This document shows, in pieces, positions 913-31,541 of a stretch of DNA of 64,000 bases. Numbering within the stretch: the stretch's first letter is position 1; every line of letters begins with the position of its first letter. Below the pieces are notes generated by a model. The model had not been told where the DNA came from and searched no databases. It worked only from the letters and a program-made list of their open reading frames with translations. Location of the stretch: assembly GCA_964016885.1 (NCBI GenBank), contig OZ024740.1:149854001-149918000 (forward strand). The letters run 5' to 3'. A program made the translations under genes and the position numbers. This DNA comes from Eledone cirrhosa (taxonomy: Eukaryota).

Positions 913-3480
913 TATAGGTAAGATTAGTAAAGTGATCCTCGACAGAGTACTACTGGAGCTTAATAGAAAGGCTAAGGTCTGCCTCTGGGGCAACACCGAC
1001 CAGGTCATAAATTGGTTCACCGAGTTGCCGGATAAAGCCACCCTGAAATTCATCCAGTTTGATATAGATAGTTACTACGCTTCTATCTCCCCCATACTCT
1101 TAAATAAGGCACTTATCTTAGTTAGATCTAAAACTAGCCTCACTAAAAAAGAAATAGACATAATTCTAGCGGCGCGTAGAACCATTATCCAGTTCGAAGG
1201 CTCCCACTGGACCAGAACCAACCGTCCTGATAACTTCGATGTCACGATGGGGTCCAGTGACTCAGCGCAAGCAACTGACCTGGTCAGGATATACCTCCTA
1301 CATAAGCTTAGGGAAGAGATACCGGCCTTACAAGGAGGTGTATATAGGGACGACGCCCTGCTTACCGTCAGGAACCATAGCCCCCGTAGGATAGAGAACC
1401 TTAACAAACATATACACAGGTTCTTCAAGTCATACGGCCTATCCGTAACTATGGACCTCAACCACAGGGTTGTCAACTTCCTGCACGTGACCCTGGAGTT
1501 GAGTACGGGCTTATACAAGCCATACCATAAGCCTGGAGAGTGCCTCACTTATATTAATTATGCCTCCAACCACCCTAAGCAGACTCTCAACTCCATAGTC
1601 TATAGTATCTCACATAGAATCTCGACGCTATCCGCCAATGAGGATATCTTCAACCAAGCGGCAGATTACTAAAATAGGGCCTTGATAAGCGCCGGCTTTA
1701 ACCGAGGAATTTCCTACATCCCTATCGCTAGCTCTAGAAACCACCCCCCTCATAAAACGAACATTATAGTAAGCCATACCTATAACCGATCACGCGGCGA
1801 CCTCGTTCAAGTCGGATATAATAGAATAGATAACCGCCTAAAGATCACGACCCGGCGACGGTGAACACTGTAGACTACTCGAACTTTTCCCCTATTATAA
1901 AACCAACAAAGGCGGCGGCCTACTACCAACGCCTTCCAACCAACATCTTCGTGTACATAAACATGGAAGAGGTAGGAAGAGTACACCCGAGCATAAAGTG
2001 AAAGGGGCACCGAACGGGCGACTGCGCATTAACACACATAAGAGCGGTCACCTAGATGGAACCACCCGTAACAAAAGTACAAAGACACGTAATCGCCACC
2101 GTAACGTCCTATGGTTCCACCCCCTACTCTCGGAGTGTGGCCTCCAACATACCCCGGATGTTCTTCGAAGCCTTAGAGAAGAACTTCCCGCCCAACTATA
2201 GGTATAGAAAAATTCTTAATAGGAACAATATAAAAATATCCTTCTCTACTACTCCTAACCTAGCAGACATCATAGGAACAACGAACCACAGTAAGATCAC
2301 CAAGACACAACACCTCGACACAGACGCACCTACACCTGACAATAACTATATCGGCCTTAACAACACCCTGGCAGCATCCAATAGTGTTGGCAACGGCATC
2401 CGCAGACGCAACCAGCATAACCGCGAAATGACTGGGGAACATGCAGGACATGACATGCGGAATAACAATCGCACCACCCCGCGTGCTGTGGGTTGTAATG
2501 GTGCTAACGACAGCTGCGGTAGCGTAGGTAACAACGTAGGCAGCAACAATGATAGCCTTACCGTGGGAAATAGACGGAACCGCGACAGAAATTGCAACTG
2601 CCACGACAGAGGACGCTGCCCCCTTAGAGGATACTGCTTGACTGATAGGGTTATATATAGATGCACTATTACTAGCCACAATAGCGTTAAACATTATATA
2701 GGGGCTACCTCCGGCCCGTTCAAAATTAGGTGTCGAACACATCTCCACTTTTTCACAAATAGAAAACTAAGGCACTCCACTTCGCTCGCAGACTACATCA
2801 CATCACTAAAGGACTTAAACATCAGCTTCTCCACGCACTGGGAGATTGTCGGCAGGGCTGCACCGTACAACTTCAAGAGGAAATGCGATCTTTGCCTCAT
2901 AGAGCTCTACCACATCATAACTGCACCCCACGAGCTCATCAACAGCAGATTAAAAATATCCTTCTTCAGATGGGTTAAGGATGAGGAGTGAAACCGTACA
3001 CCGGATCTCCCTGCAACAAGTCTTAACACCCCGGCGGGCAGGCGCTGCAAAACAACACCCAGGAAACAATCCTTGCATACCAGACCCAGCTTCAGACAAA
3101 CAGATGCGGCAAAAAAAAAAAAAAAAAAAACTCTCAAAATAAGCGTTGATTACATGCGTATCGACAATGGTAAGGTTGTAACCTCATCTCGTAGCAGATA
3201 AAAAAAAAATTAGTCCGGGAAAGACTGCCCTAACACCGGTCAGAGTTACCTCCCTTGACCTGCTGCAAAATCAAAACAAGCTATTTTTGCGAGCAATGAA
3301 CCTTGATGTGGATTTAACCCAAAAAACTCTTTCCGAGCAATATAAGGAACACTTTTGATTATTTATGCCCTTGAGAAGCCCAACTGGGCGAAACGTACGT
3401 AGGTGTTGTTTTAAATAAACATGTTTTAACGGTCTATTCTCCGATTTTTTACTTTCCCACGTACATATATATGTCTATAT
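913..3480 (+). mobile_element. Naiad-type Penelope-like retroelement family 1, 5'-deleted pseudogenised copy
   Basis: RT motifs IQFDIDSYY, TMGSSDSAQ, YRDD; CNCHDRGRCPLRGYC zinc finger; GIY-YIG (VIYRC..YIGAT..FKIR..CDLCLIE); internal stop at 1670 and frameshifts; 3' HHR and AATAAA. Confidence 0.92.
3365..3406 (+). ncRNA. Minimal type I hammerhead ribozyme, U3/A8 core variant, in the PLE 3' pLTR
   Basis: TTGAGAA-GCCC(AACT)GGGC-GAAA-CGTACG-TA-GGTGT; palindromic stem III; AATAAA follows; stem I weak. Confidence 0.7.
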
Positions 3481-4539
3481 GTGTATGTGTAAGTACGTAT
3501 AGCCACATATGAGTAGGTGTGTGTGTGTGTGTGTGTGTGTGTGTGCGGGCGGGTAAGTGTGCGTATATATATGTGGATGTGTATGGGTGTATATATGTGG
3601 ATGTGTGTGTGGGTGCAGGTGCATGCATTTACGGGCCTCTATATGTGTGTATATATATTTGTGCATACATGTATGTGTTTATGTGCATCTCTTGGGAATG
3701 TGTGCGGATGTTTATATATGGACTATATATGTTTTTTTTCATTATTATTATTATTATTGTTGTATTATTTTATCACATATCCTCCATACATACCCGCATA
3801 TATGCGTATATGTACGTATGAGTCTGTGTACGTGTGCGTCTGTTTATGTGTGTGTGTATATATATATATATATACGTAGGTGCGTATGTATATATATATG
3901 TGTGTGTGTGTATATATGTATAATAGGGGTATATATATATATATATATATATATTTATATATATATATATATGTGTGTGTGTGTGTGTGTGTGTGTGTGT
4001 GGTGTGTATATGTATACCACATTGTATATTACATTTCATTGTATCTTTTTCTTATGTTATACTGTTTTATGTTATTATACTGTTTTTTATTGCATAATGT
4101 ATTTTCAACTGTTCACTTACAGGTGTCTTTATACATGTACATGTATATGTGGTGGAACTTCCGTGTGTAGGCGGATGTGCATGCGTGCAGGTGTATCCAT
4201 GCGGCAACATGTATGCGTACGCATGTGTAGATGTATGCAGTTCGGCCTATGCGTGGGTATTTGTATGTATATGTGTGGATGTGCGTATGCATGTTAAGTT
4301 GTCCCTTTTTCTTTTGTGTGTATATATGTATATATATATACATATATAAAATATATATATATATATATATGTGTGTGTGTGTATGTACGTGTGTAGGCAA
4401 TTTTTATGTACGTATGTGTTCGTGTTTGGACATGTAATAGTTTACGTTTGTGTATATATGTGTGTGTATGCATGTGTGTATATATATATATATGTATATG
4501 TATACATATACTTATGTAATGAACAACATAAGATAATTA

Positions 4540-4600
4540 TTTAATTTACCAGTGGTTTCTTGAAAGCAAACGATATTTGCTTTCATTCATCAGAATGAAA
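4540..4600 (-). ncRNA. Minimal type I hammerhead ribozyme
   Basis: Minus strand: TTTCATT-CTGATGA-A-TGAAAGCAAA(TATCG)TTTGCTTTCA-A-GAAA-CCACTGG-TA-AATTAAA; 10-bp stem II; GUA cleavage site. Confidence 0.82.
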
Positions 4601-4794
4601 AAATCCTAAGTGTGTATATATATATGTGTATACACATGTGCGTATATATGTATGTATGTGAATGTATGTGTGTATGTATATATGCGTGTGTATGAGCGTG
4701 TGAATATATATATATAGATAGATATTGAAGACCAGAGTGTACCATCTCCACCACCTATGACACCGGACTCTATTACAAACAGGGAATTTACACC

Positions 4795-30249: not shown

Positions 30250-31090
30250 TTTCTGATCGTCTCTCAATTCTCACATATCACGCCTAATAGCTCTCTGTGC
30301 CTACCGATGATCATACACCAGGTAACTGCCTCGACTGACAGACTATGTGTCAAGAGTGGAGCTTCTCACTCCTCAGAGACTCTTCCGACTTTGTGGATGG
30401 AATATCATTGCTAAGTAGGCATCGGCCAGTCATTGTGATCATCAGTGAAGCACTCTGTCCTGTCACCGGGAGGTCATGTGTCTCACCGTTTGTGGCTAAG
30501 TACATGCGTTTGGTGCCGTGCAGTGACAGAAGCACCTCAGTCAAAGCAAGCGCAAGTTTTTCTTCTCATGGTGATTGATTGAGGGGTAACATCGATGGAT
30601 ATAGTTCAACAGACAGTCGTTCGTCTCAATCCGGCATAAGGAGGCCATGGTGTTACGTTCGTTGCCTTACTGAACTGGAGCCATAATGGAACTCGGCAGC
30701 TTACACGGTGATCAACCAGCCAATAGTAGGAGTAGCACTGGTTACACCCACAGGACACGGACCTAAAAAATGTAGAATAAAATATACTCGTTCCAAACTT
30801 CTACTGACGATTGGCTGCAGTTGGTGGCTAGTCCAAGTTTTGCAGTCGAAACAACAGATACTCTTCTGCTGTTTTCACGAGTACAAGGAATATTCACATA
30901 TTGCTGGACCAAAAGAGAGCTAACAGGCCTGAGAGTTGTTCTGCCATGCTTGGCCTCAAACAATGCAATATTGACATTGATGGCTTAGAAGAAACTCGTA
31001 TATCCGGTGAAGAACAACTCACAGAAGTTTTAGCTGGCTACACTTTTGGCTGGAAAGGCTATCTGGAAGACCGACTCTGCATCATGGTGT
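30250..31090 (+). mobile_element. RTE/BovB-type LINE 5' region (5' UTR and start of the APE domain), degenerate
   Basis: NRPESCSAML..CNIDIDGLEETRISGEEQLTEVLAGYTFGWKG resembles the RTE-BovB endonuclease N-terminus; 5' boundary approximate. Confidence 0.75.
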
Positions 31091-31444
31091 GTATATGAAG
31101 GGTTTGTGTTTCTGTTGTGGATTGTCTTGCGAGACAAACCACAACAGAAACAGAAACCGACCATCTCAATCTTACTTTTGAAAATCATAAGAACTGTGAA
31201 ACCGATAAAATAAATAAATATTCTTAAAAGACTCCAGCTGCATTTTCAATTTCTTTTCCTTACAATTTTACTTGTGTGGGACATCTTTTAAAAAACCTCA
31301 TTTTCTGATATATATATATATATATATATATATATATATATATATATATATAACGAAGGAAATGTGGTAAGGAACCAAGTGGACCATAACGCACCAAAGT
31401 ACTCAATACTTAGGGTAGTAGAGTGGATAATAGGAACGAGTAGG

Positions 31445-31541
31445 ACACCGACGGCTGAGCTCAAGCCGTTTCGACGGCTAATTCTGGACTAAATGAAAAT
31501 TTTTATCCTGGTATATGAATAGCCGAGCTTCTCAGGGGGTA
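31445..31541 (-). ncRNA. Type I hammerhead-like ribozyme with extended stems II and III, variant core
   Basis: Minus strand: ACCCC-CTGAGAA-GCTCGGCTATT..AATTAGCCGTC-GAAA-CGGCT(TGAGCTC)AGCCG-TC-GGTGT. Confidence 0.72.

Follow-up and report, generated by a model that had tools for sequence, protein, structure and literature searches.

The window analysed in this study is a stretch of 64,000 nucleotides from the cephalopod Eledone cirrhosa (GCA_964016885.1, contig OZ024740.1, positions 149,854,001 to 149,918,000 of the forward strand), in which an earlier reading of the letters alone, hereafter the sequence-only reading, had noticed about twelve type I hammerhead ribozyme motifs per 32-kb tandem unit. 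We propose that these motifs are probably 3' ends left by many Hydra-clade families of Penelope-like elements (PLEs), of which some remain attached to an open reading frame (ORF), most are truncated, and at least three belong to ORF-less units of about 0.6 kb. The motifs of the first unit (unit A) were said to be duplicated in the second (unit B), and the motif windows were indeed identical in 13 of the 13 cases checked. Unit B, being an almost identical copy, therefore gives no independent evidence for the motifs, and all motif counts are given per 32-kb unit.

The labels of the sequence-only reading are kept here, with the core positions in brackets: 3365 (3371), 4540 (4593), 6699 (6734), 7551 (7558), 10208 (10294), 11702 (11730), 19636 (19672), 19904 (19909), 25536 (25541), 26322 (26328), 26957 (26957) and 31445 (31536). 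Core bases follow the hammerhead position numbering, and G is disfavoured at the cut position. We scanned 910-33007 on both strands with a scored type I descriptor, composed after the motifs had been inspected, which tolerates a U3-A8 core and, at the base of stem II, one unpaired base pair. It returned 8 matches per unit at a score of at least 20, whereas 200 local 500-bp dinucleotide shuffles averaged 0.8 (sd 0.9, maximum 4) and none of them reached 8; a similar density in shuffled sequence was thus not found. The eight are 3365, 4540, 6699, 10208, 19636, 25536 and 26322, which make up 7 of the 12 listed motifs, together with 27157. Seven have no core mismatch and one has a single mismatch, while 7551, 11702, 26957, 31445, 31178 and 20878 depart from the type I form with its core and three stems. 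The other five listed motifs (7551, 11702, 19904, 26957 and 31445) scored below 14, and matches at 14-17 (25438, 16436, 22544, 24534 and 13354) were taken as background. A stricter descriptor gave one motif per unit, and a looser form, run without shuffle control, gave three.

Three motifs lie beyond the original list, namely 27157 (minus strand), 31178 (plus) and 20878 (plus); the relaxed scan used in the search for 20878 gave 2 matches against 0.034 in 500 shuffles. This brings the total to 8 strong motifs and about 15 in all per 32-kb unit, that is, about one per 2-4 kb, in line with the one per 3 kb suggested earlier, in a single locus picked for its apparent richness that gives no genome-wide figure. 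The count of about twelve is therefore borne out for seven strong motifs and by the excess over shuffles, but five of its members are weak or broken and three motifs had been missed. The motifs outside the ORF-less units described below are:

3365..3406, plus strand: hammerhead 3365, with a U3-A8 core, an 8-nt palindromic stem III, a predicted cut after 3401 and a score of 28
4520..4610, minus strand: piece of about 90 nt between microsatellites with hammerhead 4540, predicted cut after 4547
7551..7685, plus strand: hammerhead-like motif 7551, with an extra core base, a long stem II, AATAAA and then (TA)65
11702..11740, minus strand: doubtful motif 11702, with a weak core, weak stems II and III and no stem I
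25536..25590, plus strand: best-formed hammerhead 25536, with a canonical core, predicted cut after 25585 and a score of 33
26322..26390, plus strand: hammerhead 26322, with a canonical core, a weak stem II and a predicted cut after 26366
26957..27030, plus strand: broken motif 26957, with GAAA, an 8-nt palindrome, AATAAA and a microsatellite, the 5' core being defective
27040..27200, minus strand: hammerhead 27157, with a U3-A8 core at 27157, predicted cut after 27128 and a score of 26
31125..31308, plus strand: decayed sister of 27157 (72% over 122 bp), core 31178, ending at (AT)22
31352..31545, minus strand: hammerhead-like motif 31445, with a C3-A8 mismatch, a long stem II, a 6-bp stem III and a predicted cut after 31450

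The sole match of the strict scan, 25536, has a 10-bp stem II, an 8-nt palindromic stem III and a 5-bp stem I. Motif 4540 (score 33) also has a 10-bp stem II, and its piece is likely to be a truncated 3' end; 26322 (score 28) is followed by (TA)n 20 nt past its cut. Motif 10208 had been called decayed, a description that does not hold, as it has a U3-A8 core variant like that of 3365 and a 7-bp stem I. Neither 7551 nor 31445 was recovered by the scored scan; the latter has a weak stem I and the (AT)22 about 95 nt past its cut. The earlier descriptions of 11702 as truncated and of 26957 as decayed were confirmed by the missing stem I of the one and the broken core of the other, and both may be chance occurrences or decayed beyond recognition. 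No repeated relatives of 11702 were found at 80% likeness, and 11702-13400 stands at single-locus depth. A repeated fragment of a long interspersed nuclear element (LINE) ends at 11699-11702, only a few bases from where 11702 is predicted to be cut, and the motif has kept nothing beyond the cut. We considered 11702 as an element ending at its own cut site and set this aside as an anecdote, given that it is a single case, its single-locus depth and a junction ambiguous by 2-5 nt.

A covariance model was built from 22 hammerheads of other organisms, themselves chosen by a similar pattern. It found 26322 (E 3e-5), 4540 (E 0.0005) and 6699 at E<0.003, these E-values being rough, followed by 10208 at E 0.5 and 7551 at E 1.2, and missed the remaining motifs; its other matches at E 0.3-1.7 were taken as background. 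A search against Rfam 15 gave no ribozyme among 116 matches to E=1. The matches were only microRNA-like, lay on microsatellites and were all under the gathering score.

Stem III had been described as mostly palindromic. It is perfectly so in 6 of the 12 listed motifs, and most of the others are near-palindromic hairpins. In 6 of 14 motifs (4 of the 12 listed), AATAAA is no more than 12 nt away from the predicted cut, against a background of 4% within 30 nt. A run of (TA)4 or longer lies within 150 nt of 10 of the 14 motifs (background 16.5%) and within 260 nt of 13 (background 22.8%), these proximity counts leaving out 20878. Neither AATAAA nor TA runs entered any scan, and their presence agrees with the motif calls. 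The observations that several motifs precede AATAAA and a microsatellite, and that they represent the minimal type I hammerhead known from PLEs and end at microsatellites, were upheld. The proposed targeting of TA/TG repeats stands for (TA)n but not for TG, as the nearest repeat is nearly always TA and the TA/TG stretch of one family is internal to the element. That the motifs come from many distinct families also holds, except that 6699, 19636 and 19904 belong together in a single family (70% over 149 bp), which leaves at most 10 families among the twelve.

The same build recurs in other organisms. We compared 80 related metagenome loci. In 60 of them the end of the ORF could be placed and was followed by at least 250 nt, while the other 20 had no such end or too little room. 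A same-strand hammerhead of the same build, U3-A8 forms included (L006, L057), was found in 53 of the 60, a fraction that does not count independent families as several of the loci are near-identical copies. The hammerhead lies 77-1104 nt downstream of the ORF. At L007:128-350, L025, L076, L080 and L024, two different hammerhead families are found only a few hundred bases apart, in many cases separated by TA runs, which suggests a pile-up at shared targets. In L024, a hammerhead whose core has a swapped G3-C8 pair stands at both ends of one element, its two copies being 2.5 kb apart.

Four broken frames that combine a reverse transcriptase (RT) with a GIY-YIG endonuclease were identified in each unit by tblastn and profile matches. 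Pfam gave no match to these four frames, and homologues and a profile were used instead. The frames are:

910..3450, plus strand: PLE-A, with RT, linker, GIY-YIG endonuclease and 3' untranslated region (UTR), its 5' part lying at 32445-33007
14987..17500, plus strand: PLE-B, decayed, starting at (TA)21
22519..25636, plus strand: PLE-C, with a truncated ORF (22597-23983), a long 3' region, a hammerhead, AATAAA and (TA)112
28122..29196, minus strand: PLE-D, a truncated ORF with a CxCx5C linker, YIG, CxxC and CxH

Their aligned pieces are 28-54% alike, which makes them remnants of separate families. The order of RT followed by a C-terminal GIY-YIG holds along the profile in all four. The frame of PLE-A spans the unit junction from 32445 to 2991 and contains RWK, DKT, YRDD, CxCx5C and YIG motifs; PLE-B has RWG and DET in place of RWK and DKT, and this region is absent in PLE-C and PLE-D. 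CxCx5C is present in 4 of the 4 remnants, and YIG or DIG also occurs; of the motifs around the endonuclease E and N, CxH was found in PLE-B, C and D and CxxC in PLE-A, C and D. Judged by these motifs, the four would belong to the Hydra clade. The (TA)n target is seen where PLE-B begins at (TA)21 and where PLE-C ends at (TA)112. With hand-drawn limits, the ORF-bearing remnants amount to 9.9 kb, or 31% of the unit. Compared with homologues of 700 aa, low-complexity in-frame insertions of about 70-130 codons were observed between RT and linker in PLE-A (1842-2520), PLE-C (22790-23170) and PLE-B (16880-17100).

A same-strand hammerhead lies downstream of the ORF in PLE-A and PLE-C. In PLE-A it is 3365, which has a weak stem I and stands 380 nt past the stop. 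In PLE-C, a 90-bp inverted copy (93%) of 25415-25504, the sequence just upstream of the ribozyme, lies at the truncated 5' end of the ORF and so ties that ORF to hammerhead 25536. The descriptor scan found no hammerhead after PLE-B, and 27157 is on the same strand as PLE-D, 965 nt past its stop with other DNA between. Most of the other motifs sit in short pieces that are indistinguishable from truncated 3' ends.

Three insertions show a complete ORF-less unit, of 591, 633 and 588 nt, with no PLE profile match inside. They are listed here with a further inverted pair of the 588-nt family:

9970..10762, minus strand: 591-nt unit insertion, the unit (10560-9970) coming after 202 bp that repeat part of its own 3' end
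20424..21272, plus strand: 633-nt unit insertion flanked by (TA)n runs, the unit coming after 216 bp that repeat part of its own 3' end
19266..20257: second inverted pair of the 6699 family, with a complete 588-nt ORF-less unit at 19853-19266 (minus strand) and an internal microsatellite
6445..6985: first inverted pair of the 6699 family, its minus arm carrying the whole hammerhead, predicted cut after 6704

The 591-nt unit has (TA)n runs on both sides, a longest stop-free frame of 63 codons and one U3-A8 hammerhead (10208) with a long stem II and a predicted cut after 10212. In the 633-nt unit the hammerhead (20878-20976) is decayed with an 8-bp stem II, and the longest stop-free frame is 90 codons. 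The upstream partial copies in these two partial tandems begin 41 and 81 nt past the predicted cut, which is what a cut 5' end would give. The hammerhead of the 588-nt unit (19636) has one mismatch, and the unit's 131-codon frame appears to be a product of the microsatellite run.

The inverted pairs 6445-6985 and 19266-20257 are one family, 70% alike. The minus arm of the former includes a structured tail, a TA/TG stretch, a conserved terminus and a 55-nt extension, while its plus arm starts within the core at 6741 and is without the extension. In 19266-20257, motif 19904, which has an intact core and a stem III insertion, is 88% like 19636, and the truncated inverted copy continues 55 nt into the own start of the 588-nt unit. 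All four arms cross the TA/TG stretch to a common terminus that was found exactly four times in the unit. The same extension is present on one arm per insertion and matches the minus-strand unit start at 19853, from which we derive a 588-nt unit with an internal microsatellite. Between the two insertions (three sequences), stems I, II and III and the tail hairpins have changed in sequence with their pairing kept. An octamer-like site upstream of 19636 was dropped as a candidate, as it has 7 occurrences in the unit.

Read depth over 10190-13400 was summed over contigs from two runs of one sample and is not a copy number. It reached 48,000-50,000 at the hammerhead of the 591-nt unit, 17,000-32,000 over the stretch unique to it and 27,000-30,000 in the bin that contains the unit junction, with 23.5-26.5 over the neighbouring 11702-13400; in a run of another organism it was 0 over 10190-10513. 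In addition, 1,184 raw reads run on across the unit junction with tail-like letters; these are restriction-site associated DNA (RAD) reads that may come from few loci. The ORF-less hammerhead pieces make up at least 4.2 kb, about 13% of the unit (hand-drawn limits). The sequence-only reading had taken much of the spacer for ORF-less ribozyme elements. Three complete units of that kind do exist, but 3365 and 25536 lie downstream of PLE ORFs on the same strand, and the word "much" is not borne out, given the 13% and the single-locus depth of 11702-13400.

A 3' end shared with an ORF-bearing partner was looked for, and no match to the unit's four PLE remnants was found. The three ORF-less units are likely to be non-autonomous passengers that would use a PLE enzyme in trans. 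No two consecutive units each with a complete hammerhead occur in the window, so that the short units fall outside the definition of retrozymes. Likewise, no tandem pair of same-family hammerheads was found within the unit, and cleavage as a dimer would therefore need source arrays elsewhere or pairing in trans. The partial tandems, inverted copies and one-sided tails match the pseudo-long terminal repeat (pLTR), inverted-copy and tail features described for PLEs.

We suggest the following course of events. Its basis is the four diverged RT and GIY-YIG remnants of the unit, two of which are followed by a hammerhead and TA repeats. According to the literature on the clade, the protein would nick (TA)n and copy the RNA from a point 15-300 nt past the ribozyme. 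Copying that stopped early may have left short pieces that keep the ribozyme, and template switching may have produced the inverted pairs. In three insertions, copying appears to have run through the whole ORF-less unit and into the next copy, in which case the template would be a multimer or a circle. The ribozyme is predicted to cut precursors, either as a dimer through palindromic stem III or with help from protein, and this processing is the weakest step of the scheme. The whole 32-kb block, with a chitin deacetylase-like gene, was later duplicated in tandem.

Several points weigh against this interpretation. The independent covariance model recovers only 3 motifs well, and the minimum-energy folds of several monomers miss the active shape; homodimer energy was below that of two monomers in 14 of 14 motifs folded, which counts as no evidence as there was no control. 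Clade assignment is by motifs, without a tree. A firm tie to an ORF is seen for just 2 of the 15 motifs, PLE-B having no hammerhead and the link of 27157 to PLE-D being putative, and motifs with a long stem II or with AATAAA at the cut could come from other PLE clades. The tail covariation amounts to 4 of 38 pairs in three sequences, with a term of -0.32. Among the raw reads are relatives of the 591-nt unit that depart from it internally, at 10395 and 10500; the summed depth gives no copy number and no listed contig spans that unit. Each ORF-less unit is drawn from one insertion (two for the 6699 family). Published accounts, in the portions that concern cleavage, describe PLE hammerhead dimers as cutting poorly in vitro, 1 of 9 Xenopus dimers as cut, and the hammerhead of an Anolis element as protein-dependent and dispensable for insertion.

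We regard a chance origin of the motifs, as mere hairpins of AT-rich repetitive sequence, as very improbable. No Rfam ribozyme match, a single strict-scan match per unit, scoring devised post hoc and two motifs (11702 and 26957) that may be chance or unrecognisable would fit such an origin. It is opposed by the failure of all 200 shuffles to reach 8, by the three motifs that a model from other organisms finds at E<0.003, by the enrichment of AATAAA and TA runs past the cuts and by the same form in 53 of 60 related loci. Chance origin is refuted for the 8 strong motifs taken together, but not for each of the 5 weak ones by itself. The full proposal of the sequence-only reading, that the spacer consists mostly of ORF-less retrozyme-like elements moving through circular RNA with truncated autonomous elements a minor part, finds agreement in the 13 of 15 motifs that have no firm ORF link, in the three complete ORF-less units, one of them highly repeated, and in the portions of the literature that describe retrozymes as non-autonomous PLE derivatives with dispersed monomers. 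We consider it unlikely, given that ORF-bearing remnants take up 31% of the unit against about 13% for ORF-less pieces, that 11702-13400 is at single-locus depth, that a tandem of two hammerhead-bearing units is absent, and that nine or ten pieces are too short for classification.

It is also improbable that all ORF-less pieces are 5'-truncated autonomous PLEs, with the 0.6-kb units arising as one-off template jumps and no non-autonomous families at all. The complete-unit signature occurs at similar size in three separate insertions, and the same extension past the terminus is seen in two insertions that are only 70% alike and also begins the 588-nt unit. A junction-bin depth of 27,000-30,000 and the 1,184 continuing reads point the same way, with the proviso that RAD reads may represent few loci. 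What speaks for truncation is that hammerheads lie 77-1104 nt past the ORF in related loci, so that a 250-nt upstream stretch can be 3' UTR, and that reads diverge within the 591-nt unit; Cervera and De la Pena (2014, PMC4209133), in the portion compared, likewise take most single motifs as truncated PLEs. The preferred reading, that the motifs are 3' ends of many Hydra-clade families with at least three ORF-less units among them, can be extended to a wider and distinctly doubtful picture. In it, cephalopod genomes would contain a largely uncounted stock of ribozyme-bearing PLEs, with copies in the order of 10^5-10^6 in hundreds of families and many 0.6-kb ORF-less units moving as hammerhead-cut multimers or circles, and at least one family would carry a TA/TG microsatellite and so both target and spread the repeats with which such genomes are filled.

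The comparisons below draw on portions of the cited sources. By analogy, Hydra-clade PLEs and minimal hammerheads appear to be the kind to which the locus belongs, and the short units resemble retrozymes. Section 11 of Craig et al. (2021, PMC8557442) gives the diagnostic motifs, (TA)n insertion and hammerheads of the Hydra clade, and the supplement lists an Octopus member, Hydra-1_Obim of Octopus bimaculoides. The elements described there share the C-terminal GIY-YIG, RWK, DKT, CxCx5C, CxxC and CxH, the (TA)n insertion, the inverted truncated copies and tails, and the 3' hammerhead, in which one base pair at the base of stem II is unpaired and stem III is near-palindromic. What sets the present locus apart is that it combines four diverged families with about 15 motifs within 32 kb, and that it has U3-A8 cores (not present in the table S2 rows compared), stem II domains of 60-80 nt and ORF-less units, which the same paper reports for Chlamys and not in its Hydra section. 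Those non-autonomous Chlamys elements, such as MRC1, are also ORF-less, pLTR-forming and PLE-dependent, but belong to green algae and another clade and are mostly without hammerheads.

The metazoan PLE hammerheads of PMC4209133 have the same varied stems around a kept core, the U3-A8 form (described for Schistosoma PLEs) and palindromic stem III; they mostly occur singly, form pairs on opposite strands at distances of 100-700 bp, and were proposed to cleave as dimers. The totals given there run to thousands in a genome, about 2,000 plus 1,300 for Schistosoma and 9,000 for Xenopus, and the local density seen here, if typical, would lie far above them. Non-LTR retrozymes (Cervera and De la Pena 2020, PMC7229834; Li et al. 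2026, bioRxiv 10.64898/2026.07.22.740005) are similarly ORF-less with a type I hammerhead, are thought to be moved by PLEs, and include dispersed monomers, with family lengths of 51-972 bp. They are defined by tandem hammerhead-bearing units, whereas here there is one hammerhead per strand and a hammerhead-less partial repeat. The 588-633 nt units, known from DNA alone, also exceed the 170-400 nt of expressed invertebrate retrozyme circles. No cephalopods appear in the retrozyme species lists compared. Further background came from portions of PMC11167929, PMC6962438, PMC8967140 and PMC8969392.

Among the top-ranked records of our search, which did not extend to subscription journals or Repbase/Dfam, earlier cephalopod reports were limited to Hydra-1_Obim and the 235 hammerheads counted by Rfam in the giant squid genome paper. 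Within the searched literature, 0.6-kb non-autonomous units in a cephalopod, the long stem II, the internal microsatellite and a local density well above published totals would seem to be new. Standard annotation overlooks such motifs, as Rfam yields 0 here and 235 in the giant squid, against 8 to 15 in one unit. Published totals, in the portions drawn on, are over 6,000 in coral, about 5,000 in mussel and up to 120,000 in axolotl; if the density seen here is typical, few animal genomes would be richer in ribozymes than those of cephalopods. With the ORF-less units, short natural substrates would be at hand for the questions of what the hammerhead does in a PLE and whether PLE proteins move retrozyme-like RNAs, and an element whose conserved ends enclose a microsatellite would connect retrotransposition with the spread of microsatellites. 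Should the locus be no more than a hot spot of truncated ends, it would add an ordinary case to those published in 2014 and 2021.

The window has the following overall layout and other features:

910..33007: tandem unit A, 32 kb, with unit B from 33008
1-916: end of a third copy, equal to 28334-29250 at 99.0%, a copy without about 3.76 kb
8515..9573, minus strand: chitin deacetylase-like open frame of 352 codons (Pfam PF01522, E 7e-9)
8111-8242, 16331-16421, 24315-24497 and 32063-32109: short repeated element in four pieces, 83-95% alike
4760-6300, 10800-11700 and 21300-22500: LINE fragments, with an RVT_1 match at 5197-5682

The stretches 910-31971 and 33008-64000 match at 99.4%, with 58 substitutions in 30,966 aligned bases and 20 gap runs. 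An assembly artefact as the source of the tandem was rejected on account of these differences and of the deletion in the third copy; the local read depth, about 3x that of other listed contigs, also bears on the tandem being real. Alternatively, one copy may be a haplotype duplication. In the upstream copy, a 7-bp shared word at 910-916 joins the equivalent of 29250 to that of 33008, and the deletion of about 3.76 kb fuses two opposite PLE remnants.

The chitin deacetylase-like protein is 71% identical to Octopus and Argonauta proteins, as suits a cephalopod host, and its frame sits in an array of at least 2, probably 3, recent 32-kb copies; no prior report of a chitin deacetylase tandem array was found among the top-ranked records of the literature searched. 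Outside the PLE pieces, the unit includes LINE fragments and the short repeated element, as well as microsatellites and stretches that stand at single-locus depth. The LINE stretch 10838-11701 is highly repeated and was found in another organism's run as well. The short repeated element, which we take to be SINE-like (a short interspersed nuclear element), is inserted into PLE-B and the 3' region of PLE-C, among other places. Diverged direct repeats of 50-150 bp (73-86%) were observed at 23995-24160, 24949-25375, 25912-26237, 18719-18970 and 32015-32161, and three of them lie upstream of hammerheads.

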